Shown: piece by piece, positions 1-55,544 of the stretch
Numbering within the stretch: the stretch's first letter is position 1
Layout: the number at the start of each line of letters is the position of its first letter
From: Candidatus Omnitrophota bacterium
Lineage (GTDB): Bacteria; Omnitrophota; Gorgyraeia; B26-G9
Length of the DNA stretch: 64,000 nucleotides
Direction: 5' to 3'
NCBI GenBank assembly: GCA_043814605.1
Contig: JBDRJV010000007.1
Location: 3,354-67,353, forward strand
Translations under genes and position numbers: made by a program
The notes under the pieces: generated by a model
What the model was told of the DNA's origin: nothing
The model's input: the letters and a program-made list of their open reading frames with translations, nothing else
The model's database searches: none

Positions 1-124
1 AATATACGTAGGAAGTAAAAATAGTCCTTTGAAAAAAATAAGTATCACGATAATGGCAAACCATTCGAAAGGATGGGACAGGTAAGAATAAGCCTTCTCG
101 TAGAAATTTTCATAGATGTGAGCT

Positions 125-300
125 TATTAGTCGCAAGTTGCAAGTCACAAGTTACATGTAAAAGCAAAGACTAAAAGCTAATGATAAAGACTGCGGGAGC
201 AAAGCCACAAACCTAAACAGGTCGCAGGTCTCAAGTAGCAGGCTGCAAGTAAAAGCAATTAACTTGTAACTTGAAACTTGGAACTTGAAACTTGTATGGT
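125..300. repeat. Degenerate heptanucleotide-periodic intergenic repeat (GTNNCAA / CTTGNAA-type 7-mers, about 25 consecutive units)
   Basis: Read directly: gtcgcaa gttgcaa gtcacaa gttacat gtaaaag ... cttgtaa cttgaaa cttggaa cttgaaa cttgtat. The phase is maintained across about 175 nt. Confidence 0.7.
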
Positions 301-345
301 GGTTGGGTTGCCGAATGAAGCAGAGCTCATTTTGAGTCTGATAAA

Positions 346-382
346 AACCTGTTCTTAACTCTTTCGAGAACAGGTTTTTTTA
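346..382 (+). terminator. Rho-independent terminator-like hairpin (aacctgttc / gaacaggtt plus T7) 12 nt upstream of the next start codon
   Basis: 9-bp perfect stem, 10-nt loop and a TTTTTTT run, seen in the sequence. Confidence 0.45.
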
Positions 383-394
383 TTAGGCAAAAAA

Positions 395-2866
395 ATGAAA
401 AAATTAAAATATAAAAAATTAAATAAAAACTTAGCAACGCTAACAATTGCTTTATGTTGGATTTTGTTTTCTGCTTCATTAGCCTTGGCTGCTAATCAAA
501 TGAGTCAGGATAGTTATTCATTCAGCGTAATTGAGGATAATGCTGCTCCTTATCTAGATCATTGTTTGCCTACGGCTAACGCAACTGATGTTCCTCAGCA
601 CACAAATATTCAGTTTACTATTAAAGATGACGTTTCCGGCGTTGATAGTGGTTCAATTGATTTGACAGTTGAAGGGCAGTTGATTATTAATGATGGAGTC
701 GTTCAGTCCTTTGTTAATTCAATAGGCATAACAGTTGATTATGATGTTGAAATAATTGAGAAAAATTCTTGTGAATACGTAATTATGTATGATCCTGCAG
801 AGTATTTTGATTACAAACAAGTGGTAAATATAGCAGTTTCCGCTTCCGATTTAGAGAATAATACAGCAGCGGCAATAAATTATTCTTTTAAAACCCAGAA
901 ATTTGTTTATGGCGTGATAAGAAGTCTATCCAGGAGAAATATTTTAAGTGATGCGGCTGAAGGGGAACAGGATTATTCTGCTATTGCCACTTCCTCTGAT
1001 GGAAAAAAAGTTTATATTGTTTGGCAGGAATATTCTCAAGATGGGCAATGGAATATTTATTATATGCAATCGCTGGATTTTGGTCAGACCTATAGCAGTG
1101 CCCAACAAGTTCATCCAACTCAAATAGGAGTTGACCATTGTAATCCTCAAATCACAATTGATGCATTGGATAATGTTTATGTTGTCTGGCAGCAAAGAAA
1201 CCACAGTGCAGACTGGGACATTTATGTAGCAAGCTTAAATAATGGCGATATGGAATTCAGCGATAGTTATCTTGTTTATAATGATTCTGGGTTAACTGAC
1301 CAAACTAATCCCGTAATTTGTGTAAAAGATGCTTTGACTGATGATGGAGATAGTAATACGCAGGAACCTGCGACCCTGTATATCGGCTGGGTGGATGCAA
1401 ATGCCGGAATAAATAGCATAAAATTTATCCGGACAACTGCTAATTATCAGGATTATTGGTATGAATTTGTAAATAACCCAGTACGTGTTGATGATGATCG
1501 CTGGCCGCAACAGGCGGGTGGATTAGCTTTAGAAGTCGACGATGCGGGAAATATTATTATTGCTTGGTTAGGAATTAATGTTGACGGCACCAACAGTATT
1601 TATCTTGACCGGGCGCAAAAATCAATAATTGACAGCGGAGAAAATTTTGGTACAGATATTGAAGTTAGTGCAGCAACAGCAGCACAAATAGCTCCGCGAT
1701 TAGAAGTATCTAGTGATGGAAATAATGCCTATGTTTTATGGTTATCTGAAAATCAAACTCAATGCAATCTGAATTTTTCTGATTATTTGTACAGCCAGGG
1801 ACAAGGGATATTTAATTTAGACAGTAATCATCAAGTAAATGCCACCGCGATTACTCTGGATAGTGTGAGTGGATACGACTTAAAAGTTGATGAGCAATCA
1901 GATGTTTTTGTTGTTTGGCAGGAAATACAATCTGGTAACTATATTGTAAAGATTGCCGGTGCGAGTGAATCAGACTATAATTTCGAAGAATATGTTGATT
2001 TTGATACAAGCGGAACTCAAACCCATCCGGTGTTAGCTTTAGATAATAACGGTTATCATTATTATACCGCATGGTCAAATGATAGTGACGGGGTAAAAGA
2101 AATTAATTTATGCAGGAATACTTTTATTGAAACTGATTCTGTTAGTTCTCAAAAAATTGAAAATGATGTCGGCGGCAGTATTAATGTTACTAGCGGCGAT
2201 TTAAGCGGTACAAATGTTACGGTAATCCAAGATTCTGTAGAAACTCCTTTACAGGTCACAATTGCAGAAGTTGTTGCCGCTCCTTTAACAGCTGGGAATT
2301 TAGTTGTGGTTAGCAATGTTGTTGATTTTGGCCCGGGAGGGACTCAATTTGGTACTCCGGCTACAATAACAATCCCTTACACAGAGGTTCAATTAGATAG
2401 TGCGGGAATTACCAATAATGCTAGTTTAAAAATTTATTACTATAATTTAGCGGCTCAGGATTGGGAAGAAATGCCGGGATCAAGTATTGATTTAGCCGCG
2501 GAAAAAATATCTGTTTCTACAGATCACTTTTCTATGTATGCAATTTGCGGCGACCCGACAAGTACAGTAGATACAGGCAGTATTATTACCCCAGCAGTCT
2601 CAGCTTCATCAGGCGGTGGCGGCGGAGGAGGATGTTTTATTGCTACGGCAGCTTTTGGTACGAAGATGGCTAAAGAAGTCAAAATTCTCTGTGAATTTAG
2701 AGACCGGTATTTATTAACTAATTATTGGGGAACACAGTTTGTAAAGTTTTATTATAAGAACAGTCCGCCGATTGCAGATTATATCAGACAGAAAGAAGGT
2801 TTAAGAAGTATGATTAGATTCTGCTTAAAACCGTTGATTAGCCTGAGCAGAATGATATGTGATTAA
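395..2866 (+). CDS. Large secreted protein: signal peptide (ALA-AN cleavage site), six or more beta-propeller-like (Y/F)VVWQ repeats, poly-Gly linker and a Cys-containing C-terminal about 80-aa module (GGGGGGGCFIATAAFG...)
   Basis: 823-aa ORF. The N-terminus is basic then hydrophobic then AxA. Repeats recur: YIVWQEY..WNIYY, YVVWQQ..WDIYVA, YIGWVD, IIAWLG, YVLWLS, FVVWQE. It is the first gene of the exosortase locus. Confidence 0.6.
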   Translation: MKKLKYKKLNKNLATLTIALCWILFSASLALAANQMSQDSYSFSVIEDNAAPYLDHCLPTANATDVPQHTNIQFTIKDDVSGVDSGSIDLTVEGQLIINDGVVQSFVNSIGITVDYDVEIIEKNSCEYVIMYDPAEYFDYKQVVNIAVSASDLENNTAAAINYSFKTQKFVYGVIRSLSRRNILSDAAEGEQDYSAIATSSDGKKVYIVWQEYSQDGQWNIYYMQSLDFGQTYSSAQQVHPTQIGVDHCNPQITIDALDNVYVVWQQRNHSADWDIYVASLNNGDMEFSDSYLVYNDSGLTDQTNPVICVKDALTDDGDSNTQEPATLYIGWVDANAGINSIKFIRTTANYQDYWYEFVNNPVRVDDDRWPQQAGGLALEVDDAGNIIIAWLGINVDGTNSIYLDRAQKSIIDSGENFGTDIEVSAATAAQIAPRLEVSSDGNNAYVLWLSENQTQCNLNFSDYLYSQGQGIFNLDSNHQVNATAITLDSVSGYDLKVDEQSDVFVVWQEIQSGNYIVKIAGASESDYNFEEYVDFDTSGTQTHPVLALDNNGYHYYTAWSNDSDGVKEINLCRNTFIETDSVSSQKIENDVGGSINVTSGDLSGTNVTVIQDSVETPLQVTIAEVVAAPLTAGNLVVVSNVVDFGPGGTQFGTPATITIPYTEVQLDSAGITNNASLKIYYYNLAAQDWEEMPGSSIDLAAEKISVSTDHFSMYAICGDPTSTVDTGSIITPAVSASSGGGGGGGCFIATAAFGTKMAKEVKILCEFRDRYLLTNYWGTQFVKFYYKNSPPIADYIRQKEGLRSMIRFCLKPLISLSRMICD

Positions 2867-2869
2867 TAG

Positions 2870-3300
2870 TTATGAATGATGAGTTACGAGTTACGAGTGA
2901 CGAATTATAAGTGACGAGTTGCGAATTACGAATGACGAATTATGAATTAAAAGCGAATAGAAAAGCAGAGAAAAAAGAAAGGAGTTTTAGATAAACACAG
3001 ATCTAAAAGCTTAGATGAACAATGATAGGAAAGTAGATAGAAACCGAGAGACGAGGGACGAAGGAAGAGAGACGAGAAAATAGAAAATATATAAAGTTAC
3101 AAATTACAAGTGACGAATTACGAATTAAAAGCGAATAGAAAAAAACAAAAAAAGAAAAAACTAAAAAGCAAATAAGAGAGACGAAAAAGCGGATAAATTT
3201 TTTAAAAAATAGTTTTTTAAGCGAACGAAGAGAGCGTTCGTCCTTCATGCTAAAGAGTGGAACGAATGGTCGTCTTTCAGACATCGGTAAAAACAGGTAA
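2870..3300. repeat. Composite heptad-periodic intergenic repeat, copy 1 (a gagttac/gaattac tandem 7-mer run plus conserved blocks shared with 9040-9361)
   Basis: Read directly: gagttac gagttac gagtgac gaattat aagtgac gagttgc gaattac gaatgac gaattat, with the 7-nt phase kept for about 400 nt. Blocks 3082-3120 and 3205-3287 are near-identical to 9186-9225 and 9282-9361. Confidence 0.75.
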
Positions 3301-3550
3301 CGGGATTGCTGGAAACGGGTTAACTAGTTTAAAAAATAAGCTGACAAATAAGTGGGAGGCTTAAAAACGAGGGCTTGGTTTTTTAAATTCCAGGCTCTTG
3401 TTTTTTTTAAAAATCAGTGTTATAGTTAGAAAATAGCGAAGAGAAAAAATGCTGCAAGTTGCAGGACTCAGGCTACAAAAGAACGAAAAAACAATAACTG
3501 AAAAAAGTGAACAGCGTTTAGCGATTAGAAAAATCAAAAAATTAAAAATT

Positions 3551-4393
3551 ATGGATAAAAAATTAGTAGATTATTTAACAGTTTTGCTGATTGTATTGTT
3601 TTTAGCAATTATGTATTATCCTGCATTTATTTGGATGTGGGAAAGATGGCATGCTCCTGATACCAATTATAGCCATGGGATATTGATTCCTATTGTTTCT
3701 TTATTTTTGCTTTATTCAAGAAAAGAAAGACTTAAACAAATTCAAATTAAACCGGAAGGTTCAGGTATTATCTTCGTTTGTTTAGCAATTTTAGTGCATA
3801 TTACCGGGAACATGATAAATTTTCCCTTTGCCAGTGCTTTTTCGTTTATAATTATGTTAATCGGAATTGTGCTTTTTTTATTCGGAATAAAAATACTAAA
3901 AGCAGTTAAATTTGAAATATTGTTTTTATTATTCATGATTCCTGCACCGCTAATGTTAATTTCAAATTTAACAATAAGAATGAAATTATTTGCTGCGGGC
4001 ATTGCGACAAATTGTTTGAGTGTAATGGGATTAAAGGCAGTAAGAGAAGGCAGTATGATTCGTATGGGGCATTCATTTTTAGAAATTGAAGCGCCTTGCA
4101 GCGGGTTAAGGTCATTGATTTCCTTATTGGCTTTTGGCGCTGCCTTTGCCTATCTGACAAAACATAAATTTTGGAAAAAAGTAGTGCTTTTTGCAACAGC
4201 GCTACCCATTGCCCTAATTGCTAATGCCGGACGGATAGTCTTGCTAGGCTGGGTGAGTGAGGTATATGGTATGCAGGCAGCACAGGGATGGGTGCATGAT
4301 TTTTCTGGTTTTCTTTTATTCTTTTTTGCTGCTTGCGCGATGATTGCTGTAAATAGCATTTTAATAACACAAAAAATTGATGAACAAAAATAA
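3551..4393 (+). CDS. Exosortase (EpsH/XrtA-family transpeptidase)
   Basis: Polytopic membrane protein with exosortase signature motifs: YSHG (N-terminal), the catalytic Cys in EIEAPCSGLRSLISL, and NAGRIVLLG (Arg motif). I chose the MDKK start at 3551 because the upstream in-frame stretch from 3449 lies inside repeat sequence. Confidence 0.8.
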   Translation: MDKKLVDYLTVLLIVLFLAIMYYPAFIWMWERWHAPDTNYSHGILIPIVSLFLLYSRKERLKQIQIKPEGSGIIFVCLAILVHITGNMINFPFASAFSFIIMLIGIVLFLFGIKILKAVKFEILFLLFMIPAPLMLISNLTIRMKLFAAGIATNCLSVMGLKAVREGSMIRMGHSFLEIEAPCSGLRSLISLLAFGAAFAYLTKHKFWKKVVLFATALPIALIANAGRIVLLGWVSEVYGMQAAQGWVHDFSGFLLFFFAACAMIAVNSILITQKIDEQK

Positions 4394-8141: not shown

Positions 8142-9035
8142 ATGAAAAATTTAATACGCAGATGTGCTTTATCCGTAGTTTTAGCTTTAAGCCTGGGAGT
8201 TTTAAATTCTGGATGCATCCAGCAATATACTGTTGAACGAATGCTCTGGCAGGCAAATAAAGCGGCGGAACCGATATTTATAAATCAAGGTTCTGTCCCA
8301 AGTTATGAATTTAACAGGGTTATCGCATTATTTGATAAAGTTATTGAAAAAGTACCAGGATCAAGTTATGCATTAAAATCTAAACTGAGGAAAGCTTCAC
8401 TTTTTATTTCACAAAATTCGTATGAAAAAGCCTTTAAAATTTATGATGATGTAGTTACGGAATATAAAGAACAAAAAGAAATTTGCGCCAGAGTTATTTT
8501 TTTAAAAGGCCAAGCCTGTGAAAAACAAGGCCTGTGGGATAAGGCATTAGAATTTTTTAATCAGATATTATTAGAATATGAAAAAACACAAAAAAGCTTG
8601 GCGGTTCCTTTATATATCGCGAGGTATTATAGTGAAAACGGGCAGGATAGCCAAGCGCAGCAAGCGTATTTAGGAGCGGTTATGTATTTTCAGTCAATTG
8701 CAGATAAATACCCAAATACTAAAGGCGCGGTATTATGCGAAAATTTGATTGTGCGGACTTATTTGGAAATGGGAACCTGGGGAAAAGCTGCTGAATATAT
8801 AGAGCAATTAGATGGAAAATATAAATTGGGGCCAGATACTCTTCTGGTGCTTGCGAGAATTTATGATAATAAGGTAAAGGATCCAGTCCGCGCTAAGCAA
8901 ATTTATCAGCGAATTTTAGAAAATTATCCTAAACATAAAATTATTGAAGCGGTGAAAAAGGATATGAAAAAACTTATTACCAGTGAGCCGGTGGCCAATG
9001 AGCCGGTTGACAGTGAGCCGGTAAATAGTCAATAG
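8142..9035 (+). CDS. TPR-repeat lipoprotein
   Basis: Lipobox LNSGC after a signal peptide. TPR-like helical repeats follow, and the C-terminus carries an EPV repeat tail. Confidence 0.5.
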   Translation: MKNLIRRCALSVVLALSLGVLNSGCIQQYTVERMLWQANKAAEPIFINQGSVPSYEFNRVIALFDKVIEKVPGSSYALKSKLRKASLFISQNSYEKAFKIYDDVVTEYKEQKEICARVIFLKGQACEKQGLWDKALEFFNQILLEYEKTQKSLAVPLYIARYYSENGQDSQAQQAYLGAVMYFQSIADKYPNTKGAVLCENLIVRTYLEMGTWGKAAEYIEQLDGKYKLGPDTLLVLARIYDNKVKDPVRAKQIYQRILENYPKHKIIEAVKKDMKKLITSEPVANEPVDSEPVNSQ

Positions 9036-9039
9036 TCGA

Positions 9040-9361
9040 TGGTCAATGGGTTGAAGTAAAAAGGATAAAGGATAAAAATTGAATGCTGCAAGCTGCAGGG
9101 AAAAATCAATGATGAGTTACGAGTAAACTGAAGGACGAGGGACGACCGCTGCGCTAGGACGAGAGACGAAAAAACAGAAAATATATAAAGTTACAAATTA
9201 CAAGTGACGAGTTATGAGTGAAAAGCAGATAGAAACCGAGAGATGAAGGACGAGGGAAGAAAAAGTTGATAAATTTTACAAGAAATAGTTTTTAAAGCGA
9301 ATGAAGAGAGCGTTTGTCCTTCGTCCTAAAGAGCGGAGCGAATGGTCATCCTTCGGACTGC
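9040..9361. repeat. Composite heptad-periodic intergenic repeat, copy 2 (shares blocks with 2870-3300 and the aaaggataaaggataaa block with 19070)
   Basis: Near-identical blocks gaaaatatataaagttacaaattacaagtgacga and aatagtttttaaagcgaa.gaagagagcgtt.gtccttc...gagcgaatggtc. Two compensatory changes relative to copy 1 preserve the small hairpin. Confidence 0.7.
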
Positions 9362-9386
9362 GGTTAACACTAGTAACAGAGGATAT

Positions 9387-10517
9387 ATGCAGGAATTTTT
9401 AGAAATAATACTGAATCAATGTTTAAATATTTTAGAATCAGATAGCGGTTCGATTTTATTATTGGATAAAAATAATCAGGATATTGTTGTGCGCGTTGCC
9501 CGGGGCAAACATAAAACTTCGATCTTAGGCAAAAAAAACCGTCTGGGAGAAGGTATTTCCGGCATGGTTGCACAACAAAAAAAACCGCTTTTAATTGAAG
9601 ACTTACGTAAAGATGAAGCCATTAAAAATATGTGCCGGGAACAAAATTATCGCACGCATTCGTTTCTTTCGGTGCCGCTTGTTTTTTCCGGCCGCTTGTT
9701 AGGAGTCTTAAATATCACGGAAAAAACAAAAGGCGAACCTTTTTCAATTAAAGAATTATCATATGTCAGCGCCATCGCCAGTTGCGCCGCAGGGACAATT
9801 GACCGGATGTTTTATAACGAGCATTTAGAAAGGCAGTTGGAATCATTTAAAAATTCTACAGCGGTTAGTAAATTTACATCCGCGATTGCCCATGAATTAA
9901 ATAATCCGCTGGATGGAGTATTGCGTTATTTACGCCTGGCAATAATGCAAGTGCCGGAACAAAATGTGCTAAAAGAATATTTATTGGAAATCCTCTCAGG
10001 GGTAAAACGCATGTCGGAAATAATTAAATCTATGCTGGAATTTTCTTTTGCCGGCGATCGAAACCATAGTCCTATTGCACGGGATAAAGTTGATGTGAAT
10101 GAGATTATTCAAAAATCAATAACTTTTTATAAACAAGAGGCTTTTTTTAAAAATATTGAAATTAAAGCAGAATTAGCTCCGGCATTGCCAAAAATTAAAG
10201 ATTGCGGCTTAATTCAAGTATTTAATAATTTTATTAAAAATGCAATTGAAGCTATTCTTGAACAGGGGCAATTATCTATAAAAAGTTATCAGGAAAATGA
10301 TAATATTTTTGTGGATTTTATTGATACAGGTGTGGGTTTAAATAAAGACCTAAAGGATAAAATTTTTGAGCCGTTTTTTACAACAAAAACTAAAGGTAAA
10401 GGATTAGGATTAGCAATTGTGAAAGAAGTTGTTAGCTGTTATGAGGGAGAAGTGAAAGTGGAAAGTTTAATTCCTAAAGGAACAAAATTTACTTTAATGA
10501 TTCCAATACGGAGGTAA
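9387..10517 (+). CDS. Cytoplasmic sensor histidine kinase (GAF - HisKA - HATPase)
   Basis: H-box IAHELNNPL and G2-box GLGLAIVKEVV. The N-terminal region is GAF-like. The RBS agagga sits 6 nt upstream of the ATG. Confidence 0.8.
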   Translation: MQEFLEIILNQCLNILESDSGSILLLDKNNQDIVVRVARGKHKTSILGKKNRLGEGISGMVAQQKKPLLIEDLRKDEAIKNMCREQNYRTHSFLSVPLVFSGRLLGVLNITEKTKGEPFSIKELSYVSAIASCAAGTIDRMFYNEHLERQLESFKNSTAVSKFTSAIAHELNNPLDGVLRYLRLAIMQVPEQNVLKEYLLEILSGVKRMSEIIKSMLEFSFAGDRNHSPIARDKVDVNEIIQKSITFYKQEAFFKNIEIKAELAPALPKIKDCGLIQVFNNFIKNAIEAILEQGQLSIKSYQENDNIFVDFIDTGVGLNKDLKDKIFEPFFTTKTKGKGLGLAIVKEVVSCYEGEVKVESLIPKGTKFTLMIPIRR

Positions 10518-10522
10518 AAATT

Positions 10523-11938
10523 ATGAAAAGGCATATATTGATTACGGATGATGAGCCGCTAACCAGGAAGTCTCTAAAAGAGATTCTCAGATATGAAGGA
10601 TACAATGTTACCACGGCTGAAGACGGGGCAAAAGCTTGGGAAATTATGCAGCGTTTACCCGTAGATGTGATTATGGCTGACATGAAAATGCCTAAAATCG
10701 GCGGTATGGATTTACTGAAAAAGGTGCGGGAAAATTATCCCCAAACTCAGGTTGTGCTGATGAGTGCTTACGGAAATATTGAAAATGCAGTGGAAGCAAT
10801 GCGTTTAGGGGCTTTTGATTATGTAACTAAGCCCATCGAGGATGATCAGCTAAGATTATTAATGAAAAAAATTGATACACGCAGTAACTTAAGAACTGCA
10901 GAGGTTAGTCCTGACTCAGAAATCCAAGCTCCCAAAGAGATACGGTATAAGTTTTATACAGTTATGGGTAAAGATGAAAAAATGCAGAGAATTTATACAA
11001 TGATTGAAGCAATTGCTGATACTCCGTCAACGGTTTTGATTTGCGGTGAAAGCGGTACGGGCAAAAGAATGATTGCACAAGCAATCCATCAGGCAGATCA
11101 TGCTCGGGTGAATCAGCCGTTTATTGAAATCAGCTGTGGGGCACTTCCGGAAACCTTGCTGGAGAGTGAACTTTTTGGTCATGTCAAAGGATCATTCACG
11201 GGTGCGATTAAAGATCGGGCCGGAAGGTTTGAATTAGCTAATGGCGGGACAATATTACTGGATGAAATCGATACCTGTTCGCCTAGTTTACAGGTCAAGT
11301 TATTAAGAATTTTAGAAGAAGGGGAATACGAACGTGTCGGAGATATAAAAACACTTAAATCTGATGTCCGGGTGATTGCGGCGACGAATCAAAGTTTAGA
11401 AGAACTGGTGCAAAGACGCACATTTAGAGGTGATTTATTTTGGCGCTTAAATGTGATTAATATTAATTTACCGGCTTTAAGAGACCGTCTCGGTGATATT
11501 CCGCTCTTGATCGAACATTTTTTAGAAAAATATAATCGGATGCGCCAGAAATCCGGAAAAGGAATAGTGATCGAAAGAATTTCGGATTCGGCAATGAAGT
11601 TCATGTTGGATTACCCTTGGCCGGGGAATATCCGGGAATTAGAAAATACTGTAGAAAGAGCATGTATTTTAGTAAAAGGAGCAGTGCTGGAACCGCGAGA
11701 CTTACCGGATTCGATAACTCATTATAAAGCAAAAAATAATAATAGTTTTCCCACAAAAGAGGATTTTTCATTGAAAAATGCTTTAAAAAATCCCGAACGG
11801 GACATTGTGATTGATGCTCTTAAGCACAATAATTGGAATTGCACAAGAGCCGCAGCATTTTTAGGTATTAATCGAACAACTTTATATAACAAAATGAAGC
11901 TTTACAAAATAAAAAGAACAAACAGTGTAAGATTTTAG
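10523..11938 (+). CDS. Sigma-54-dependent response regulator (NtrC family; PrsR-like by context)
   Basis: REC domain (ITDDEP...D54). AAA+ sigma-54 interaction motifs GESGTGKR, GAFTGA and ESELFGH. C-terminal Fis-type HTH. Confidence 0.85.
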   Translation: MKRHILITDDEPLTRKSLKEILRYEGYNVTTAEDGAKAWEIMQRLPVDVIMADMKMPKIGGMDLLKKVRENYPQTQVVLMSAYGNIENAVEAMRLGAFDYVTKPIEDDQLRLLMKKIDTRSNLRTAEVSPDSEIQAPKEIRYKFYTVMGKDEKMQRIYTMIEAIADTPSTVLICGESGTGKRMIAQAIHQADHARVNQPFIEISCGALPETLLESELFGHVKGSFTGAIKDRAGRFELANGGTILLDEIDTCSPSLQVKLLRILEEGEYERVGDIKTLKSDVRVIAATNQSLEELVQRRTFRGDLFWRLNVININLPALRDRLGDIPLLIEHFLEKYNRMRQKSGKGIVIERISDSAMKFMLDYPWPGNIRELENTVERACILVKGAVLEPRDLPDSITHYKAKNNNSFPTKEDFSLKNALKNPERDIVIDALKHNNWNCTRAAAFLGINRTTLYNKMKLYKIKRTNSVRF

Positions 11939-11969
11939 TGATGGCCTAAGTTTTTGGATGATAAGATAA

Positions 11970-13055
11970 ATGATGGAACTAGGTTTTCTCGACCTAATAA
12001 ATAGTAATAGATGGCAGGTAATTCAAGATTACTTTTCCCAGGTAATTAATGCCGGAGTGCGTGTAGTTGATTGTAACGGAGAGCCGCTCACTTCGTTAAG
12101 TAAACCGTGTAGGTATTGCTATGAATTAATATCCAGCTCACCGCAGGCACTGAGTGAATGCAACCAATGTTCCTTACTGTCTCCTGTACCCCAAATAAAA
12201 GATGACCTATTTTTTAAAAAACAGAATTTTCTTGATCAAGAGGGAAATATTTATTATGATCAGTGTTCTTTTTTTGTTAACCGAATTTATATTCCTATAA
12301 AACTGCTGGAAGGTAATATCTGTGGATATATTATAATTGGGCCTGTGGTTCTAGGTAAAAGAAAAGCTTATACCGATTATTTTAATTTGAGTAAAAACTT
12401 AGAGCTGGATATTAATGAGGTTATTGATTACATTGAAACTATCCGCGTCTTTTCTTTTAACAGTATTGAATCTATAGTGAAATTATTTCAGGAAGTGGTC
12501 AATTGTATGGTGCGTTCTGGATATGAACGAATTAAGAATCGAACAAAAAATGCGGTATTTTTAACGGAGGATCAAAATAAAACTAACTTTTACAGGGGGA
12601 AAATGATTCAAGCCTTGTTTGAAACTGCGACAGAAGGGGTAAATGCCGAACGGGCATCGGTCATGCTTTTTGATGCAGATTCAGAAACTCTTTCTATAAA
12701 AGTGGCAAAAGGGATTCCGGATAAAATTTCTCGTAACGTAAAGATTAGAAAAGGAGAAGGATTAGCCGGGTGGGTAGCCGCAGAAAACCAAATTTTATTT
12801 ATTGATCATAATTTTAAAAATCCTCGATTAATAAGCCGTTTGCGCCAGCCGCAATTAAAAGCTTCTTTAATGGTGCCAATCCGGAGTGCAAAAAAGGTCT
12901 TAGGTGTATTAAGCTTAAGTACGCAAGCGGAAAATAATAAATTTACATCTGAAAATATAAATTCTATTATTCAATTGACTAAAATGGTAGATAGCGCCTT
13001 AGTCGGACTGAGTGCAGATAATCGGATCCAGGATTTACAGGATGAGGAGAGTTAA
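11970..13055 (+). CDS. PocR-like sensory domain plus GAF domain protein
   Basis: N-terminal Cys-containing PocR-like region (VVDCNGEPL...CRYC...CNQC). C-terminal GAF region (GEGLAGWVAAENQILFID). Confidence 0.45.
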   Translation: MMELGFLDLINSNRWQVIQDYFSQVINAGVRVVDCNGEPLTSLSKPCRYCYELISSSPQALSECNQCSLLSPVPQIKDDLFFKKQNFLDQEGNIYYDQCSFFVNRIYIPIKLLEGNICGYIIIGPVVLGKRKAYTDYFNLSKNLELDINEVIDYIETIRVFSFNSIESIVKLFQEVVNCMVRSGYERIKNRTKNAVFLTEDQNKTNFYRGKMIQALFETATEGVNAERASVMLFDADSETLSIKVAKGIPDKISRNVKIRKGEGLAGWVAAENQILFIDHNFKNPRLISRLRQPQLKASLMVPIRSAKKVLGVLSLSTQAENNKFTSENINSIIQLTKMVDSALVGLSADNRIQDLQDEES

Positions 13056-13059
13056 AATT

Positions 13060-13240
13060 AGTGGCTCATAGCTCATGGCTGATAGCGAATAAAAATTATG
13101 AGTGATGAGTTATAAGTGAAAAGCGAAAAAGCAGCGAATAGCGTTTAGCGATTAGGAAATACAAAGACAAAAGCAAAAAATAAAATAAAAACTAGAAAAC
13201 AGGTAACTGGCCAACAGGATAACTGGCTAACTGTATAAGA
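13060..13240. repeat. Heptad-periodic intergenic repeat between convergent genes
   Basis: Read directly: gtggctc atagctc atggctg atagcga ... ttatgag tgatgag ttataag tgaaaag cgaaaaa gcagcga atagcgt ttagcga. The gcgtttagcgattag block is also present at 3515. Confidence 0.65.
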
Positions 13241-13244
13241 GAGA

Positions 13245-15425
13245 CTAAAATTCATCAACTTGTTTTTTAATGTTTAAAGCAATTTCTTTCCCCACGTTTG
13301 GAACCTCTTGTAGTTTCTCTACCGAGACTGTTTTAAGATTAGAAATAGTTTTGTATCCATTATTGAATAAATTACGCGCACGTATGCGTCCAATTCCTTT
13401 TAAATTGACTAATTCCAGCAGTTCTGATTTTACCCCGTACTTAAGTTGAGTCCTCAGGTTAATCAGGGGTTTAGTGCCGGGAATTTTAAACAGTTTAGCC
13501 AACTCAATAGTTGAATATAATAACCATTCGGCAGTATCCATAAAACGGTAGATATCACCAGGGCCTGTGCCAAAAAAATCACAGATTGATTCTTCTTTTT
13601 CTTCATTAATCCATTGGGAAATCATCCAGACTGTTTTGATACGGGCTAAATGCGAATTAAAATCTTCACTTAATGGCAAAGGCAGCTGGAATTCATCTTT
13701 ATGCGAATCAATATAGGGGATAATTTTTTCTAGATCAGATTTATTTACACTTAAGGTGAACATGTCCGGGACACAGCAGATCAGATAAAGTAAAGTTAAG
13801 GGGGTGAACATTCTTTCCGTTCCCTTAAAACAATCTCTGATTATAACCGCTGTGATCGGGTCAATATATAAACGGCTGATTCGGCTGCCAAATGCAGTAG
13901 GTAATAATTTATCTTTTTTTTGTTGGATCATTTCCTGACGCGTTAAAAACGCAATAATTTCTAATACTATTTCCGTCAAGTCATAATATTTTTGTTCGTA
14001 ATAAAAAAAAGTTTTGTGAATAAAGTCAAAGGCAGTATTTATGCTGGAAATAAAACCTGTAACAATTGAAGCGAGAAGATGTACCCGTAGTGCGCTTTCA
14101 TTGCCCAGATGAGAATGAATGGGTTCAGAATCCGCAAATATGAAATCGTTAAATAATTCACTTTGCTCCTGTTTATTACGAGCATAAAGAATTGATTCTC
14201 CAAATTTATCATATTTAGGCCGTCCGGCGCGTCCGCTCATTTGTTTATATTCCATAACACTTATAGGCTTCATGCCTAGGCCGGAGGCATAACGGTACAA
14301 ACCGCGGATTATTGTCCGGCGGGAGGGAAGATTAACGCCGACAGCGAGTGTGGGAGTGGCGCAAATAACCTTGATAATATTTTTTCTAAAATTTTCTTCA
14401 ATTAATTTACGATGATTATGATGTAATCCAGCATGATGAAAAGCCACACCGCATTTTGTATATTCACTTAATTGTTTAGAAACCTTCGTAACTTCTGCAG
14501 AGCTTTTGGTCAATTCCTGGGCTAAAGAAGCTAATTGGGTACGGTCCTTAGGTGTTAAAAAAGCGGATAAGTCTTTAGAAATACGCCGAGCCTCAGCCTG
14601 GGCTGACCTGCGGGTATTAACAAAAACTAAGGTCTGGCCTTTCTCATAAACACAATCAATAGCCAAAGCACTGATATCATCATTAACTCTTTTTAAGTGT
14701 TGTGCATCAAGTTCCTTTGATGTACCATCCGCAAATTTAATTTTGCCTTGACAATAAACCCCTTCTTTTAAAACTACCGGCCGCCAGCTGCTGATGACTA
14801 AATTTGCATTTAACCAATTGGCGATTTGGTCAGCATTAGCAATTGTCGCGCTTAAACCGACTATTTTTAAATTGTCATTTAAACTGATTAATCTGGTTAA
14901 AACTGTTTCTAAAGTAGGCCCGCGGTGAGGATCACCAATATAGTGTATTTCATCAGAGATAACACAAGCTAATTTTGATCCCAGCCAAGATGAATTTTGA
15001 CGCAGCAGGGAATCAACTTTTTCCGCAGTAGCGATTAAAATATCATTTTTTGCTAAGGATGGATTGGAATGGTCAAAATCACTGGTAGCAATACCAATTT
15101 TTATGCCGATTTTTTCGTAACGCTCTTTAAATTCATCATATTTTTCCGAAGCTAAAGCACGTAAGGGTACAATATAAAGACAGTTGCCTTTTTTTGTTAA
15201 AATAGTTTCTAACATGACTAATTCAGCCAGTAAGGTTTTTCCGGAAGCTGTGGGCATAGCTAAAATCATGTTTTTATCAGTAAGCAGCCCTTGTTCAATT
15301 GCTTTTGCTTGTGGGGGATAAAGATCTGTGATTCCGTTATTTGTCAAAATTTCTTGTAAATTTTTCGGTAGTGTTTTGAAAATTGCTTTTGTGTTCATAA
15401 CGTTAGCTAATTGTACCAGTTCCAA
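13245..15425 (-). CDS. Hel308/Ski2-like superfamily-2 DNA helicase
   Basis: Motif I MPTASGKT, motif II DEIH, motif VI (xRxGR) MSGRAGRP (translated). A winged-helix/ratchet region and a C-terminal helix-hairpin-helix (LKGIGRIRARNL) follow. Confidence 0.8.
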   Translation of the reverse strand: MELVQLANVMNTKAIFKTLPKNLQEILTNNGITDLYPPQAKAIEQGLLTDKNMILAMPTASGKTLLAELVMLETILTKKGNCLYIVPLRALASEKYDEFKERYEKIGIKIGIATSDFDHSNPSLAKNDILIATAEKVDSLLRQNSSWLGSKLACVISDEIHYIGDPHRGPTLETVLTRLISLNDNLKIVGLSATIANADQIANWLNANLVISSWRPVVLKEGVYCQGKIKFADGTSKELDAQHLKRVNDDISALAIDCVYEKGQTLVFVNTRRSAQAEARRISKDLSAFLTPKDRTQLASLAQELTKSSAEVTKVSKQLSEYTKCGVAFHHAGLHHNHRKLIEENFRKNIIKVICATPTLAVGVNLPSRRTIIRGLYRYASGLGMKPISVMEYKQMSGRAGRPKYDKFGESILYARNKQEQSELFNDFIFADSEPIHSHLGNESALRVHLLASIVTGFISSINTAFDFIHKTFFYYEQKYYDLTEIVLEIIAFLTRQEMIQQKKDKLLPTAFGSRISRLYIDPITAVIIRDCFKGTERMFTPLTLLYLICCVPDMFTLSVNKSDLEKIIPYIDSHKDEFQLPLPLSEDFNSHLARIKTVWMISQWINEEKEESICDFFGTGPGDIYRFMDTAEWLLYSTIELAKLFKIPGTKPLINLRTQLKYGVKSELLELVNLKGIGRIRARNLFNNGYKTISNLKTVSVEKLQEVPNVGKEIALNIKKQVDEF

Positions 15426-15488
15426 GAGTAGAAGAGGAAAGGGTTTTTTTAGGAAAATTTAAATTTAAATTTAAAATAGTAAATTTTA

Positions 15489-15968
15489 CTAATTTTTCTT
15501 TTTACTTTTTACTATTTTTTCCATTAACTCATCTATTTTATCAATAAAGTCGTTACGCTGTTGGTTTATCGGGTCAATCTTTTTTTTGATTTCTCCGATA
15601 TAAGATAATGGCCTGTCAGTTCGGCGTGCTTCATCTTCTAAATGCCATAATTCAATGTTTTTTCGGGATAATCCTTCTATGGCCTGAGAAAGTTTTTCAT
15701 TTTTACCGATTCTGTTGATATCTTTTAAAGGGTTATAAAGTTTTAATTTTTCTTCTCGTAAAGTAACTTTTTCTGCAAAAGCTAACACGATAAATTGCTC
15801 TATCTCTTTTGTTAGCAACAGCTTTTGTTTTTTTAATAATTTCATTTTTGATTTAAGTTCTTTTTGAGAAAATTTTGATTTTTTACTTTGAATGCTTTTT
15901 TTTAAATAAAATTCCCGGATAGATTTTATGGTTAGCTTATCAACCAAGCTGCCAAGGGTTTCAGACAT
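15489..15968 (-). CDS. Hypothetical coiled-coil protein
   Basis: 159-aa ORF, strongly charged and helical. I recognise no motif. Confidence 0.35.
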   Translation of the reverse strand: MSETLGSLVDKLTIKSIREFYLKKSIQSKKSKFSQKELKSKMKLLKKQKLLLTKEIEQFIVLAFAEKVTLREEKLKLYNPLKDINRIGKNEKLSQAIEGLSRKNIELWHLEDEARRTDRPLSYIGEIKKKIDPINQQRNDFIDKIDELMEKIVKSKKKN

Positions 15969-16154
15969 AAATGCCTCCAGCTTTAAGATTAAAATTTACT
16001 TTAAAATTATAACTTGTATTTAAAAAATACTCAAGGTTTTTCTAAATTTCAAGTTAATTTTTTTAGGAAATAAAAGCAAAAATAATACTTAATTAATTTA
16101 TTTAACAAAATTCCAATTGACTCCAAGGTTAGTTTGTAGTATTTTATAAATGAT

Positions 16155-17129
16155 ATGAAAAATCAAATGATAAAATACATAAGAAAACCGCGTTTAAAAG
16201 ATCCTTATCTGGTGGCAGCTTGGCCCGGCATGGGGAATGTGGCGATTAAAGCTGCGGAGTATTTATGGGAAGCGCTAAAGCCAGTGGAATTTGCCCAATT
16301 AACTGCGGAGGGTTTTTTCTACCCGCATGATGCCTGGATCGTTAATAGCCAGATTGAATTTCCCCGGTTACCTGCAGGAAAGTTTTATTATTGGAGGAAC
16401 CCTCAGGGAGGCAGTGATATTATAATTTTTCTTTGTGAGGCACAGCCTTCTTTGGAAAAAGGATATAATTATGCTCAATTAGTTCTAGAAGTAGCTAAAG
16501 ATTTTAAAGTAAAAAAAGTTTTTACTTTTGCTTCTATGCCGACCCCAATTGATCATACTCAAACGGCTAAAGTTTGGGCTTCTGCGACCGATAAGAAAAT
16601 GCTGAAAGAATTAGAAAAAATTGATGTCGAACTAATGCGGGTCGGACAAATCAGCGGTCTTAACGGATTATTAATGAGTGTTGCTAAAGAACAAAAAATG
16701 CACGGGATTTGTTTTTTAGCGGAAATCCCGATGTATGCTATTCAAATTGAAAATCCTAAAGCTGCGAAAGCTGTGCTCAATATTTTTGCCCAATTAGTTG
16801 GCTTAAAAATTGATTTTACGGGGTTGGATGAAAGAGCAAAAATGGTGGAAGATGAAATAGAAAAATTAGTTGATTATTTTAAAACCGGGGCAACCTTAGG
16901 CCCGATTAGTGAGGAAGAAATTGAGAAAGTAAAACAAACCTTGTCTTTTAGCTCTCGGCTGCCGGAATCAGCAAAAGCAAAGATTGAAGAATTGTTTAAA
17001 GTGGCTCAAATTGATTTATCCCGGGCAAATGAATTGAAAGATGAATTAGACCGCTGGCATATTTATAAGGATTATGAAGATCGTTTTTTAGATTTGTTTA
17101 AGCCGAATAAAAAAGATAACCATTGTTAA
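16155..17129 (+). CDS. PAC2-family protein (COG1938, archaeal-type ATP-grasp-like / proteasome-assembly-chaperone family)
   Basis: N-terminal AAWPGMGNVAIKAAEYL matches the PAC2 G-P-G-x-G-x-V signature. Confidence 0.5.
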   Translation: MKNQMIKYIRKPRLKDPYLVAAWPGMGNVAIKAAEYLWEALKPVEFAQLTAEGFFYPHDAWIVNSQIEFPRLPAGKFYYWRNPQGGSDIIIFLCEAQPSLEKGYNYAQLVLEVAKDFKVKKVFTFASMPTPIDHTQTAKVWASATDKKMLKELEKIDVELMRVGQISGLNGLLMSVAKEQKMHGICFLAEIPMYAIQIENPKAAKAVLNIFAQLVGLKIDFTGLDERAKMVEDEIEKLVDYFKTGATLGPISEEEIEKVKQTLSFSSRLPESAKAKIEELFKVAQIDLSRANELKDELDRWHIYKDYEDRFLDLFKPNKKDNHC

Positions 17130-17173
17130 ATTCAAATAATTTTAGAAAATACCGAGAATATATAAAAATTTAA

Positions 17174-18157
17174 ATGCTTATCTATATTGTAAGACGTTTG
17201 TTTATGCTTATTCCGATGTTGCTGGGTATAAGCATAATTTCTTTTCTGGTAGTTTGTCTTTCCGGTGATCCTGTCGATGTGCAGTATCAGCTTAATCAAA
17301 AAGTGAGTTTAGAATTAAAGGAACGCATTAAAGAAGCAGAAGGCTTTAACCAGCCGCTCTGGCAGCAATATTTCCGGTGGCTTAAGGGAATCATTAAATT
17401 TAATTTTGGGATTTCTTTTATTGACCGTCGTCCGGTGATAGAGAAAATAAGAGAGCGAATCCCGATTACGTTAACAATAAATATCTTATCCCTGCTAATA
17501 ATTTTTTTAATCGCAATTCCTATCGGAGTTTTTAGTGCCGTATGGGAGCAGTCTTTTTTTGACCGGGTAATGACTGTTTTTGTTTTTATCGGCTTTTCCT
17601 TACCTACATTCTGGCTGGCCTTACTTTTAATGCAGTTTTTCGGGGTTAATCTGCATTGGCTGCCTGTGTCCGGGATAAGATCCCTAGAATTTGAATATTT
17701 TAGTATGTGGGGTAAATTTGTAGATTTAGCCCGGCATTTAATCCTACCAATTTGTCTTTCAGCTTTTACAAGCCTTGCGGGAATTTCACGTTATATGCGT
17801 ACAAATATGATTAATGTGCTTAAGCAGGATTATATTCGTACAGCCTATGCCAAAGGATTACCTAAAAATAGAATTTATTTTCGTCATGCTTTAAAAAATG
17901 CGATTTTACCAATTATTACAATCCTCGGATTATCTGTGCCGGGGTTAATCGGCGGCAGTGTAATTTTTGAATCAATATTTGGTATTCCAGGGATGGGTAA
18001 ATTAGCTTATGATGCGGTGATGTCCCGGGACCGTTATGTGATTATGGGCATTTTAATAATTAGTTCTTTGCTAACGCTTTTGGGTAATTTTCTCGCGGAT
18101 TTAGCCTATTGCTATGCTGATCCGAGAATTAGATATGAATCAAATAATGAAAAGTGA
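17174..18157 (+). CDS. ABC transporter permease, OppB/DppB-like
   Basis: Six TM helices, an EAA-loop region, and the conserved N-terminal MLxYIxRRL. Confidence 0.8.
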   Translation: MLIYIVRRLFMLIPMLLGISIISFLVVCLSGDPVDVQYQLNQKVSLELKERIKEAEGFNQPLWQQYFRWLKGIIKFNFGISFIDRRPVIEKIRERIPITLTINILSLLIIFLIAIPIGVFSAVWEQSFFDRVMTVFVFIGFSLPTFWLALLLMQFFGVNLHWLPVSGIRSLEFEYFSMWGKFVDLARHLILPICLSAFTSLAGISRYMRTNMINVLKQDYIRTAYAKGLPKNRIYFRHALKNAILPIITILGLSVPGLIGGSVIFESIFGIPGMGKLAYDAVMSRDRYVIMGILIISSLLTLLGNFLADLAYCYADPRIRYESNNEK

Positions 18158-18194
18158 TAAGTTATGAGTGATAAATTAAAAGTGAAAAGACAGG

Positions 18195-19007
18195 ATGAGA
18201 AAAATATTCAAGAATAAATTAGCAATTTCAGGAGCAATGATTATTATTCTCATGAGCTTGTTGGCAATTTTTGCTCCCTTTATCAGCCGGTATAGTCCCC
18301 AGGAAATTAATGTTGGCAAAAACCTTATGGCTCCTACATCTGAACATATTTTGGGTACAGATAGATTAGGCCGGGATTTATTCAGTCGGATGGCGTACGG
18401 GGCGCGAATATCTTTATCAGTAGGTTTTATTGCCGTAGGGATTTCTGTGATTCTGGGAATTTTTTTTGGCGCCATTGCCGGCTATTACGGAGGAATTTTA
18501 GATCAACTAATTATGCGTTTTGTGGATATCATGCTTTGTTTTCCCAAATTTCTTCTTATTTTATCCATGATTGTAATGCTTGATCCGAGTATTTATATTA
18601 TTATGTTTGTGATTGGCGTTACAAGCTGGATGGGAGTGGCACGTTTAGTCCGGGCAGAAATTTTAAGTTTAAAAGAACGAGATTTTATTCTCGCAGCCCG
18701 CGCTTGTGGTGTCTCCCACACAAAAATTATCATGCGCCACCTTGTGCCTAATGCTATTGGGCCGGTGATTGTGAGTGCAACTTTAGGTGTGGCCGCTGCA
18801 ATTTTAGTTGAATCGAGTTTAAGTTTTTTAGGTATTGGGGTGCAGCCGCCAACTCCGAGCTGGGGCAATATCCTGATGGATGCAAAGTCATGCTTAGGGG
18901 TGGCTTGGTGGATGACTTTTTTCCCGGGTTTGGCAATTTTTATTACTGTTTTAGGGTATAATTTATTAGGTGAGGGGCTAAGGGATGTGCTGATATCCCG
19001 GAAGTAG
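18195..19007 (+). CDS. ABC transporter permease, OppC/DppC-like
   Basis: TM topology and the EAA region AARACGVSHTKIIMRHLVPNA. Confidence 0.8.
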   Translation: MRKIFKNKLAISGAMIIILMSLLAIFAPFISRYSPQEINVGKNLMAPTSEHILGTDRLGRDLFSRMAYGARISLSVGFIAVGISVILGIFFGAIAGYYGGILDQLIMRFVDIMLCFPKFLLILSMIVMLDPSIYIIMFVIGVTSWMGVARLVRAEILSLKERDFILAARACGVSHTKIIMRHLVPNAIGPVIVSATLGVAAAILVESSLSFLGIGVQPPTPSWGNILMDAKSCLGVAWWMTFFPGLAIFITVLGYNLLGEGLRDVLISRK

Positions 19008-19178
19008 CGAATAGCATAAAACAGCGGATTACTTATAGTCCACAGTTAACAGTCGGCAGACCACAGGTAAAGGGATAAAGGATAAAGAAAAAAAGCAGTT
19101 ATGAGTGATGAATGATAAATTACAAGTAAAAAGCAGGAAAAACTAAAACATTTCAGTAACCATTATTAAATTTTTATT

Positions 19179-20947: not shown

Positions 20948-21130
20948 AAAAAGTTATAAATTATAAGTGATGTGTGATAAATTAAAAGCTAAAAACTAAG
21001 AGCTAAATGCTAAATTGGCTAACAGCTGATAGTAAAAGCGAAAAAAGCAAAAAATTGGACGTAGATGGACGCAGATTAGCAGGATTAGAGCAGATTGAAA
21101 GAAATTTTCTGATAATCTAGTGCTCTGTTT
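20945..21130. repeat. Heptad-periodic intergenic repeat
   Basis: Read directly: gttataa attataa gtgatgt gtgataa attaaaa gctaaaa actaaga gctaaat gctaaat tggctaa cagctga ... Confidence 0.6.
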
Positions 21131-21371
21131 GCAACAGAGAATGCTAATTTTAAAAAACCAATAAAAAACAAAAATAAATTTTTATGTTTTAATCTGTGTG
21201 AACCAGTGTAAATCTGTGTCCTATGAATAAAGAGAGAATCAGTGTTCATCCGTGTACTATTAAACTTTGGTGTTTTTTTCTGTTTGCCCTGAGATTTTGT
21301 CAAAGGGGCTCATTAGAGATTAATCGAGTTTTTGTTCTAATCCTGCAAATCTTGTCAAAAAAGGAAATAAA

Positions 21372-46725: not shown

Positions 46726-46801
46726 TGGTGGAGCTGGGGGGACTCGAACCCCCGACCAACAGACTGCCAGTCTGCTGCGCTCCCAACTGCGCTACAGCCC
46801 C
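46726..46801 (-). tRNA. tRNA-Ala (anticodon GGC)
   Basis: Reverse complement GGGGCTGTAGCGCAGTTGGGAGCGC...CTGGCAG...GGGGGTTCGAGTCCCCCCAGCTCCACCA. It has the G3-U70 identity pair. CCA is encoded. Confidence 0.85.
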
Positions 46802-55521: not shown

Positions 55522-55544
55522 AAATAACAGGTAGAGAGTAGCCC

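Follow-up and report, generated by a model that had tools for sequence, protein, structure and literature searches.

What are the sequences of 7-nt period that fill a set of intergenic spaces in a Candidatus Omnitrophota bacterium? We addressed this question in a 64,000-nt stretch of its genome (assembly GCA_043814605.1, contig JBDRJV010000007.1, positions 3,354–67,353 of the forward strand; G+C 35.7%), to which all coordinates below refer and which we call the window. The original prediction, made from the letters alone, had singled out the spacer at 2870–3300 as an example of a dispersed repeat fitting no described family. We found that the arrays are tandem heptanucleotide simple-sequence repeats (SSRs), real and non-coding, and the claim of an undescribed kind falls away, as tandem heptanucleotide arrays in intergenic DNA are already a described class (PMC4679880, PMC4692102; also PMC6749651, PMC2700814). 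What the locus adds is a new lineage for a known kind of repeat, with an instance embedded in a riboswitch and a conservation that the repeat kind does not explain. As to their origin, we put at roughly 60% the reading that they are STRR-like arrays shaped by slippage, decay and ectopic recombination, and are mostly tolerated filler of untranslated RNA.

The periodicity is sharply centered on seven. At 2868–2953, lag-7 identity reaches 0.70 against ~0.30 for the adjacent lags, and seven of the nine regions named by the original prediction (2870–3300, 125–300, 9040–9361, 13060–13240, 18150–18195, 19010–19175 and 20945–21130) display lag-7 identities of 0.41–0.64, with neighboring lags at ~0.30. 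The other two fare differently: 21180–21280 has its higher value at lag 10 (0.42, versus 0.32 at lag 7), and 55545–55640 is a weak run of three AGAGTAG units. A sliding scan of the window recovers 13 regions at lag 7 and 0–3 at each of lags 5, 6 and 8–11. When coding and non-coding DNA are separated by a crude gene model, the pooled non-coding DNA of 1–21.4 kb peaks at lags 7, 14, 21 and 28 (0.397 versus a shuffle mean of 0.306, z-score 11.6), which bears out, within the window, the expected peak over a shuffled control; coding DNA has period 3 alone, and no period-7 signal was found in the pooled non-coding DNA of 21.4–64 kb (z 0.9). By individual spacers, five are strong (z 4.4–7.5) and two weaker (z 2.4–2.9), all within the first 21.4 kb except the weakest, 55522–55648. 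With ~20 further spacers of at least 60 nt in the window at z <1.5 for period 7, the statement that most longer intergenic spaces are so built was too broad, as was the claim of a phase held for 100–400 nt: the unbroken phase spans ~20–105 nt per stretch. The period-7 regions sit in spacers or overlap gene ends. Four sub-blocks that had been noticed to recur between loci do so, all on the plus strand and above shuffle expectation.

The focal spacer follows the gene at 395–2866, whose product matches at 100% identity a protein in NCBI, annotated 'CFI-box-CTERM domain-containing protein', from a 264-kb contig of a Candidatus Omnitrophota metagenome-assembled genome (MAG). It had been presented as one array over 2870–3300; three parts of it are indeed arrays, and elsewhere there is no clear array:

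2868–2953, plus strand: focal array of ~12 RARTKAY units (GAGTTAC, GAGTGAC, GAATTAC, GAATGAC, GAATTAT; Tandem Repeats Finder (TRF), period 7/14/21/28/35)
3045–3077, plus strand: GGACGAR array (AGACGAG GGACGAA GGAAGAG AGACGAG; TRF, period 7)
3094–3127, plus strand: RTTACRA array (AGTTACA AATTACA AGTGACG AATTACG; TRF, period 7 at 3097–3127; repeat families D1–D3)

The first begins 1 nt past the CFI-box-CTERM stop codon and is matched by a probe of three AATTACG units with 2–4 mismatches, while the other two together form a composite module, [GGACGAR]n-ATATA-[RTKAYGA]n-AAAAG. We rejected a coding reading, as the sole open reading frame (ORF) across the focal spacer (3003–3284, minus strand) has no Pfam match and the arrays hold the stops TGA and TAA; the earlier view of the arrays as non-coding stands. 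So does the view that they are not CRISPR-like, the units being 7 nt long and contiguous, versus 23–50-nt repeats with unique spacers of similar length. Rfam gave no match in 2870–3300 (in a scan of 1–3600) and none in 8900–21400.

The example at 125–300 sits inside a probable cyclic di-GMP (c-di-GMP)-I riboswitch, which the original prediction left unremarked, and heptamer arrays occupy both of its variable hairpins:

55–315, plus strand: c-di-GMP-I (GEMM-I) riboswitch-like aptamer, 5′ of the CFI-box-CTERM gene (Rfam RF01051)
129–165, plus strand: heptamer array AGTCGCA AGTTGCA AGTCACA AGTTACA in the lineage-specific variable hairpin (TRF, period 7)
218–296, plus strand: inverted array pair extending P1b (CAGGTCG CAGGTCT CAAGTAG CAGGCTG CAAGTAA, then five TAACTTG), an insert in the RF01051 alignment
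344–385, plus strand: intrinsic terminator-like hairpin and T-run, 9 nt 5′ of the start codon at 395 (RNA fold)

The RF01051 model matches 153–315 at 33.0 bits (E 8e-5 in a 420-nt search), 2 bits short of the gathering score of 35 bits, and 45–135 at 24.2 bits. Through homologues of the CFI-box gene we recovered three related loci (L026, L027 and L028), and the orthologous leader in L026 (9671–9855) scores 37.7 bits, above the gathering score, with another L026 copy at 38.2 bits. The window and all three relatives keep the P1a hairpin GGCAAACCATTCGAAAGGATGGGAC, the junction GCAAAGCC (199–206) and the 3′ strand GGTTGGGTTGCCGAA. The 3′ strand GGTTGGGTTRCCGAA is likewise common to the four loci, with an AA/UU to GG/CC compensatory change in the stem (CAAACC/GGUGGUUGG to CAGGCC/GGCAGCUGG). 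All four also have a lineage-specific variable hairpin and a terminator right before the start codon; the terminator stem (CCTGTTCT...AGAACAGG) and T-run are kept in L026 and L027, and on the predicted fold 344–385 is likely the expression platform of the riboswitch. These anchors, the covariation and the likely platform make the leader a probable member of RF01051, with a window score of 33.0 bits that lies below the gathering score. As in the family at large, there is a P1a with a GAAA tetraloop, the GCAAAGCC junction, a P1b stem and a 3′ GCCGAA; a terminator comes next, and then a gene related to the cell surface or EPS. Unlike the family, the P1b loop carries a 65–69-nt heptamer-array insert (69 nt in the window and 66 nt in L026, at the same place of the alignment), and an extra variable hairpin of 33–119 nt, absent from the Rfam model, stands between P1a and the junction (119 nt in the window versus 33–36 nt in L026 and L027).

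The P1b insert consists of different units in each genome: CAGGTCG-type units and five TAACTTG in the window, four AGCTGAT and four CCATTGA in L026, and four AGCTCAT in L027. In RNA folds, 196–320 is a single long hairpin (z −4.46), as is its L026 counterpart (z −1.73), and 110–395 as a whole has z −5.42; no long inverted-pair hairpin appears in the fold of the L027 P1b arrays. The arrays are thus evidently transcribed and sited where the RNA tolerates length, and the unit at a fixed position has been swapped over time.

Related loci extend this turnover beyond the leader. Two further ones are L001, a syntenic Omnitrophota MAG contig reached through a helicase anchor (69% amino-acid identity), and L018, a metagenome contig reached through a PAC2 anchor. 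In L001, L018, L026, L027 and L028, orthologous positions hold arrays of differing units and lengths; those of L001 are in spacers orthologous to the window's, and L018 has five arrays in 7 kb. Across the Omnitrophota-related loci, there are 32 lag-7 regions versus ~3 per other lag, compared to two in archaeal and Desulfobacterales control loci; the more distant relatives L021 and L024 have no lag-7 regions. The most direct record of change comes from L027 and L028, two assemblies encoding an identical protein (P0010) that have 0 mismatches over 8,852 nt and one 28-nt gap. This gap amounts to four GCTCATA units directly 3′ of the orthologous gene's stop codon and is a direct record of change by 7-nt steps. 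The L027 spacer, like the window's up to 3364–3410, has an array and then a terminator. At a larger scale, the oppB–oppC spacer measures 37 nt in the window versus 1,357 nt in L018, where it is made of tandemly duplicated [GGACGAR]n-ATATA-[RTKAYGA]n-AAAAG modules in the same order as in the window. Tandem segmental duplications in L018 span 180–530 nt, and the composite module occupies four sites there, including two 50-nt copies that are 100% identical. Scattered among these modules is a 50–60-nt element (ATCCTCCTTCGCCAACCCTACTACGCCAAGGCTACGAAGGGCAATGGG...) in four copies (L018 2227–2274, 2754–2801, 2932–2979 and 4681–4728); by eye, a GC-rich block after the terminator in L027 resembles it.

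Within the window, larger blocks have also been copied, as is evident in the focal spacer itself:

3045–3312, plus strand: segmental paralogue of 9125–9386 (alignment ~80% identity, two indels; repeat families D3, D4, D9, D14)
3364–3410, plus strand: intrinsic terminator-like hairpin and T-run, 3′ of the focal arrays (RNA fold)

The partner, 9125–9386, is the non-coding region upstream of a GAF histidine kinase. In the alignment with the L026 orthologue, this kinase begins at the ATG at 9387, not 9342, and the duplicated segment is therefore wholly upstream non-coding DNA. The left edge of the paralogy falls within the GGACGAR array, and the non-heptamer part of its ~265 nt (GATAAATTTT...AAGCGAAYGAAGAGAGCGTTYGTCCTTC...CGAATGGTC) is kept in both copies. 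The copy at 3190–3410, with the terminator at its end, could be a small transcript; a sigma-54 −24/−12 motif was not seen by eye in the duplicated segment. The earlier guess of a recombinogenic element fits both this 265-nt paralogy, with its edge inside a heptamer array, and the indel in 7-nt steps. The remaining arrays of the window are as follows:

3478–3558, plus strand: period-7 stretch in the exosortase gene leader (sliding scan; blocks GCTGCAAGTTGCAGG at 3451 and GCGTTTAGCGATTAG at 3514)
9020–9260, plus strand: four TAGTCAA, two AAGGATA, then the composite module (GGACGAR, CGCTGCGCTAGGACGA, RTKAYGA, GGACGAG; spacer z 7.1)
13057–13160, plus strand: four GCTCATA, three TGAGTGA and GCGAATA/GCGTTTA/GCGATTA between convergent genes (spacer z 7.4)
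18135–18196, plus strand: short RTKAYGA array filling the oppB–oppC intercistronic spacer (TRF)
19008–19150, plus strand: ACAGTTA-type, AAGGATA and GTTATGA/GTGATGA arrays in the oppC–oppD spacer (spacer z 6.6)
20905–21032, plus strand: composite module (two CGAAGGA, GTTATAA/GTGATGT, GCTAAAA-type) over the oppF 3′ end and beyond (TRF, repeat search)

The module order [GGACGAR]n-ATATA-[RTKAYGA]n-AAAAG holds at 3045–3140, 9125–9235 and 20915–21000. The arrays start at or near stop codons (2868, with the stop at 2866, and 13057, with the stop at 13055) or overlap gene ends (20905–20947, 8980–9035 and 15489–15536); they lie upstream of the terminator-like hairpins 344–385 and 3364–3410, downstream of one terminator (the stretch 3478–3558), between opp cistrons (18135–18196, 19008–19150) and between convergent genes (13057–13160). 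This confirms the earlier observation that arrays flank terminators on either side and separate convergent genes. A phase-variable contingency locus would have a near-perfect tract within a reading frame or amid promoter elements, where a change in unit number switches expression; the window arrays are degenerate and mostly 3′ of stop codons, and the polymorphic L027 tract is likewise 3′ of a gene. The arrays, among them those in stop-to-terminator stretches, opp spacers and riboswitch loops, are confined to non-coding but evidently transcribed DNA.

Their units belong to several families (RTKAYGA, GGACGAR, AGCTCAT/GCKNWTA, TRGTCAA, CARGTYR/NAACTTG and AAGGATA). On the gene strand, the arrays are 70% purine (A 46%, C 11%) versus 54% in the other spacers and in coding DNA, and the main families occur in a single orientation: RTKAYGA dimers are 11:0 in the window and 17:0 in L018, and AGCTNWT dimers 11:0 in L027. 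With a single synteny and a positive GC skew common to all these loci, biases due to transcription and to replication are inseparable here. Some families approximate the reverse complement of others, with which they form hairpins, e.g., 13064–13115 (fold z −2.52), where the GCTCATA array pairs with a TATGAGT array within 13057–13160. RNA folds of 19008–19150, 20905–21040 and L027 2933–3070 are no more stable than shuffles, and we accordingly rejected a general reading of the arrays as structured RNA.

Head-to-tail 7-nt units beyond chance, their concentration in non-coding DNA and a whole-unit copy change between close relatives (seen in L027/L028, not in the window genome) place the arrays among the heptanucleotide long SSRs. 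The class is that of Mrazek, Guo & Shah (2007), as related in PMC4679880. Heptanucleotide units make up the most abundant long SSRs in many genomes, and the G-rich heptamer SSRs of Xanthomonas and Nostoc show an excess in intergenic DNA (Rehm et al. 2015, PMC4692102); PMC4692102 cites Calothrix PCC 7601 as the organism in which three heptanucleotide repeats were first reported. Related species have such SSRs between the same genes but with varying length and sequence, at times as inverted pairs, and polymerase slippage is their proposed origin (PMC4692102, PMC4679880). The window arrays resemble them in their tandem intergenic 7-nt units, both perfect and heterogeneous, in the occupation of the same spacers in relatives, in length and sequence variation and in occasional inverted pairs able to form stem-loops. 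They differ from the Xanthomonas/Nostoc repeats in that their units are A/G-rich and C-poor (RTKAYGA, GGACGAR, AGCTCAT) and not G-quadruplex (G4)-forming, and in their Omnitrophota host, the many unit families per spacer and the presence of arrays within a riboswitch. Our literature search for Omnitrophota and heptamers returned no relevant report.

The STRR (short tandemly repeated repetitive sequences) of heterocystous cyanobacteria are likewise dispersed tandem heptamers in non-coding DNA, and a plasmid of Tolypothrix PCC 7601 has the focal GAATTAC/AATGAC unit as a (GAATTAC)9 array; the hosts differ, as protein identity, syntenic Omnitrophota loci and a sigma-54 activator mark the present one as Omnitrophota. 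The STRR units of Calothrix/Tolypothrix PCC 7601, reportedly described by Mazel and colleagues in 1990, are CCCCAGT, TTGGTCA and CAACAGT. Three-unit probes of these (STRR1, STRR2 and STRR3) give 0, 0 and 2 weak matches (5/21 mismatches) in the window. TAACTGA forms no arrays there either, with two matches at 5/21 mismatches on the minus strand of RTKAYGA arrays, and the probe search found no GGGGATT or GGGAATC units in the window. The TAACTGA repeats of marine Beggiatoaceae, Cyanobacteria and Bacteroidetes (MacGregor 2015, PMC4679880) share with our arrays the intergenic location, an orientation bias relative to genes and the spread of one unit across distant phyla, and RNA-binding proteins have been proposed for them. 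In Orange Guaymas 'Maribeggiatoa' (BOGUAY), they comprise one dominant unit just 5′ of start codons (PMC4679880), unlike the window's many units, which are mostly 3′ of stop codons or in leaders. On these comparisons of units, the window arrays belong to the heptanucleotide-repeat kind but not to its named unit families (STRR1–3, TAACTGA). Nostoc small dispersed repeats (SDR), reportedly described by Elhai and colleagues in 2008 as embedded in tandem heptameric repeats, have a parallel in the window's mosaic spacers of heptamer arrays and short blocks shared between many spacers. REP/BIME/REPIN elements and MITEs are also short intergenic repeats, conserved above neutral DNA and often transcribed in 3′ untranslated regions; the REP/BIME/REPIN type consists of 20–40-nt imperfect palindromes, unlike the direct tandem 7-mers here, only some of which form inverted pairs.

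Three kinds of change are thus established directly: arrays alter by steps of 7 nt, their units turn over where the position stays fixed, and larger blocks are duplicated. Accordingly, we posit the following course. Replication slippage or unequal recombination in a 7-nt register would make and resize the arrays, and point mutation would then decay them into the degenerate period-7 sequence of the window. Ectopic recombination or template switching between arrays would copy composite blocks and adjoining unique DNA into nearby spacers, and such copying would give rise to the common unit 'vocabulary' and the local clustering in 1–21 kb. Most arrays would be tolerated, length-variable filler of untranslated RNA; where structure matters, as in P1b of the riboswitch, they may persist as inverted pairs that merely lengthen a hairpin. 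A sequence-specific role is possible for some units.

Several points weigh against this account. Between the window and L018, spacer modules share 79–88% identity over 30–67 nt versus 45.5% for oppB third codon positions, and neutral slippage alone fails to account for such conservation above synonymous sites; it also leaves the 7-nt step size unaccounted for. The strict orientation bias could be a sign of RNA-level function. The 28-nt indel lies between two metagenome assemblies, where repeat collapse in assembly is possible, and polymorphism is known from L027/L028 and not from the window arrays, which, being degenerate, slip less readily. Two further points come from viral contigs: the AATTAYG unit far exceeds its controls in IMG/VR in number and in G+C, and a 16-mer of the module (CGCTKCGCTAGGACGA) is found again in L018 and, in three copies, in an IMG/VR contig of 58% G+C.

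We also looked for the units outside Omnitrophota. BLAST of 2866–2962 against 72,556 plasmids gave matches in Nostocales alone, the Tolypothrix PCC 7601 plasmid having four AATGACM followed by the (GAATTAC)9 array. The GCTCATA, AGCTGAT/CCATTGA and CAAGTTG arrays gave no Nostocales in the same plasmid search (sporadic Pseudoalteromonas, Pseudomonas or none), and we dropped a general Omnitrophota–Nostocales link, as these other Omnitrophota units are without Nostocales plasmid matches. BLAST against isolated phages returned Vibrio phage arrays only. The pattern GAATTAYGAATKAYGAATTAYGA (AATTAYG unit) has at least 120 stretches in IMG/VR, many of them GC-rich, versus 43 and 45 stretches, nearly all AT-rich (median G+C 0.31–0.32) and none in hairpins, for two order-shuffled control heptamers. 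Among the matches listed, the AATTAYG stretches have a median G+C of 0.45, with 38% in contigs of >50% G+C and 11/159 in a hairpin configuration; they are mostly intergenic, with 55 antisense and 28 sense to genes, an orientation bias opposite to that in Omnitrophota. Our literature search found no paper with AATTACG 14-mers.

Some viral contigs deserve mention in their own right. L037, L063 and L073 (IMG/VR, 57–61% G+C) carry near-identical intergenic hairpins with arms (AATTACG)4 and (CGTAATT)4 and loops that differ; the one in L073 precedes GCGAACGAAGAGAGCG, the 16-mer of window 3221–3236. At L033 2388–2403 and 5863–5878 and L034 136–151, the 16-mer CGCTTCGCTAGGACGA stands amid GGGACGA repeats, and it occurs three times in a viral-classified contig of 58% G+C, each time just 5′ of a likely start codon.

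The alternative that fares best, though we hold it doubtful, is that the arrays are multivalent RNA or DNA platforms for a sequence-specific protein (Csp-, S1- or CsrA-like), tuning the stability, termination or translation of exosortase/PEP-CTERM and opp mRNAs, with slippage merely adjusting the number of sites. It would suit the single gene-strand orientation (RTKAYGA 28:0), but the shared synteny and GC skew confound transcription with replication, and the bias is reversed in the viral contigs among the matches listed. It would also suit the window/L018 modules conserved above synonymous sites, the GGA-rich GGACGAR arrays adjoining start codons in L033 and L034, and the array positions kept beside the CFI-box-CTERM gene in four genomes; such roles have been proposed for TAACTGA and for Nostoc heptamers (PMC4679880; bioRxiv 10.1101/2022.06.06.494920). 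A platform for one protein sits poorly, however, with at least eight unrelated unit families, a unit swapped between genomes at a fixed position, a four-unit indel without any other change (L027/L028) and the same spacer ranging from 37 to 1,357 nt, and the binding protein itself is putative.

Further down, we regard it as unlikely that the composite blocks represent small mobile elements of a non-autonomous type (Nostoc SDR- or REPIN/MITE-like), copied in trans between spacers and perhaps genomes. The ordered module in three window spacers and four L018 sites, two of its 50-nt copies being identical, would be in keeping with such copying, as would its cross-genome conservation above synonymous sites, the four copies of the 60-nt element beside arrays in L018, the same 16-mer in IMG/VR contigs and the wide occurrence of AATTAYG arrays in viral contigs. 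The block edges, however, are fuzzy and inside arrays, and what varies is the number of single units and of tandemly duplicated segments, not the presence of an inserted block. L018 2200–5200 has 0 inverted-repeat pairs and hence no terminal inverted repeats (target-site duplications were not searched), and there is no transposase or RAYT-like gene among the ~30 window proteins scanned with Pfam, which represent part of its genes.

A related idea, which we likewise regard as unlikely, is that a subset of the units, chiefly AATTAYG and the GGACGAR/CGCTKCGCTAGGACGA block, is no random product of slippage but a specific element shared by Omnitrophota, Nostocales plasmids and at least 120 uncultivated viral contigs, some of them GC-rich and with the unit in hairpins, kept or made by an uncharacterised heptamer-specific machinery. 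If true, its conservation above synonymous sites would be due to a widespread protein or transferable system that recognizes or generates heptamers. Finally, repeat-induced misassembly or contaminating cyanobacterial DNA, to which the MAG source and the AATTACG unit common to Nostocales plasmids might point, is highly improbable given that independent assemblies of related Omnitrophota hold arrays in the same spacers, that the flanking genes are Omnitrophota-specific and syntenic, that the window has a sigma-54 activator (cyanobacteria, to our knowledge, lack sigma-54), and that the arrays are below typical read length and bounded by conserved riboswitch anchors.

On the preferred reading of slippage-borne SSRs, the locus bears on a kind of repeat known for decades in cyanobacteria, with no established origin or function. 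The host range is widened to Candidatus Omnitrophota of the PVC superphylum, even down to one identical unit. The arrays between fixed c-di-GMP riboswitch anchors, with the unit swapped between genomes, offer a compact test system, and the near-identical genome pair differing by four units makes slippage, structural tolerance and putative protein binding testable. There are practical consequences for annotation as well: arrays inflate spacers, mislead the calling of ORFs and start codons, and can drop real riboswitches under database score thresholds. Since arrays lengthen reading frames, the longest-ORF starts are likely wrong at 9342–9386 and 3449–3558; the exosortase gene probably starts at the ATG at 3559 rather than at 3449, as the Pfam EpsH match begins at residue 50 of the 3449 ORF.

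By Pfam, the array-bearing 0–13 kb is an exosortase/PEP-CTERM locus that encodes EpsH, EpsI, a sugar transferase, a PEP-CTERM protein and a TPR protein, along with the GAF histidine kinase, a sigma-54 response regulator and a PocR-GAF protein; downstream of it lie a Hel308-like helicase, a PAC2 protein and oppBCDF. At its C-terminal coding end, the TPR gene contains a 15-nt repeat (CCAGTGAGCCGGTGG, 2.9 copies at 8980–9022) that leads straight into the array at 9020. An Rfam 'tmRNA' match above the gathering threshold (47.3 bits) at 46726–46801 on the minus strand was rejected, as ARAGORN calls tRNA-Ala(GGC) there. A period-10 repeat (AATCTGTGTA, 2.9 copies) occupies 21191–21219, 5′ of a heptosyltransferase gene. 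The Hel308-like helicase (13245–15425, minus strand) has the archaeal domain 4, and its nearest genome matches after one Omnitrophota MAG are from Hadarchaeota and other archaea (~50% identity), which suggests that it may have been acquired by inter-domain transfer.

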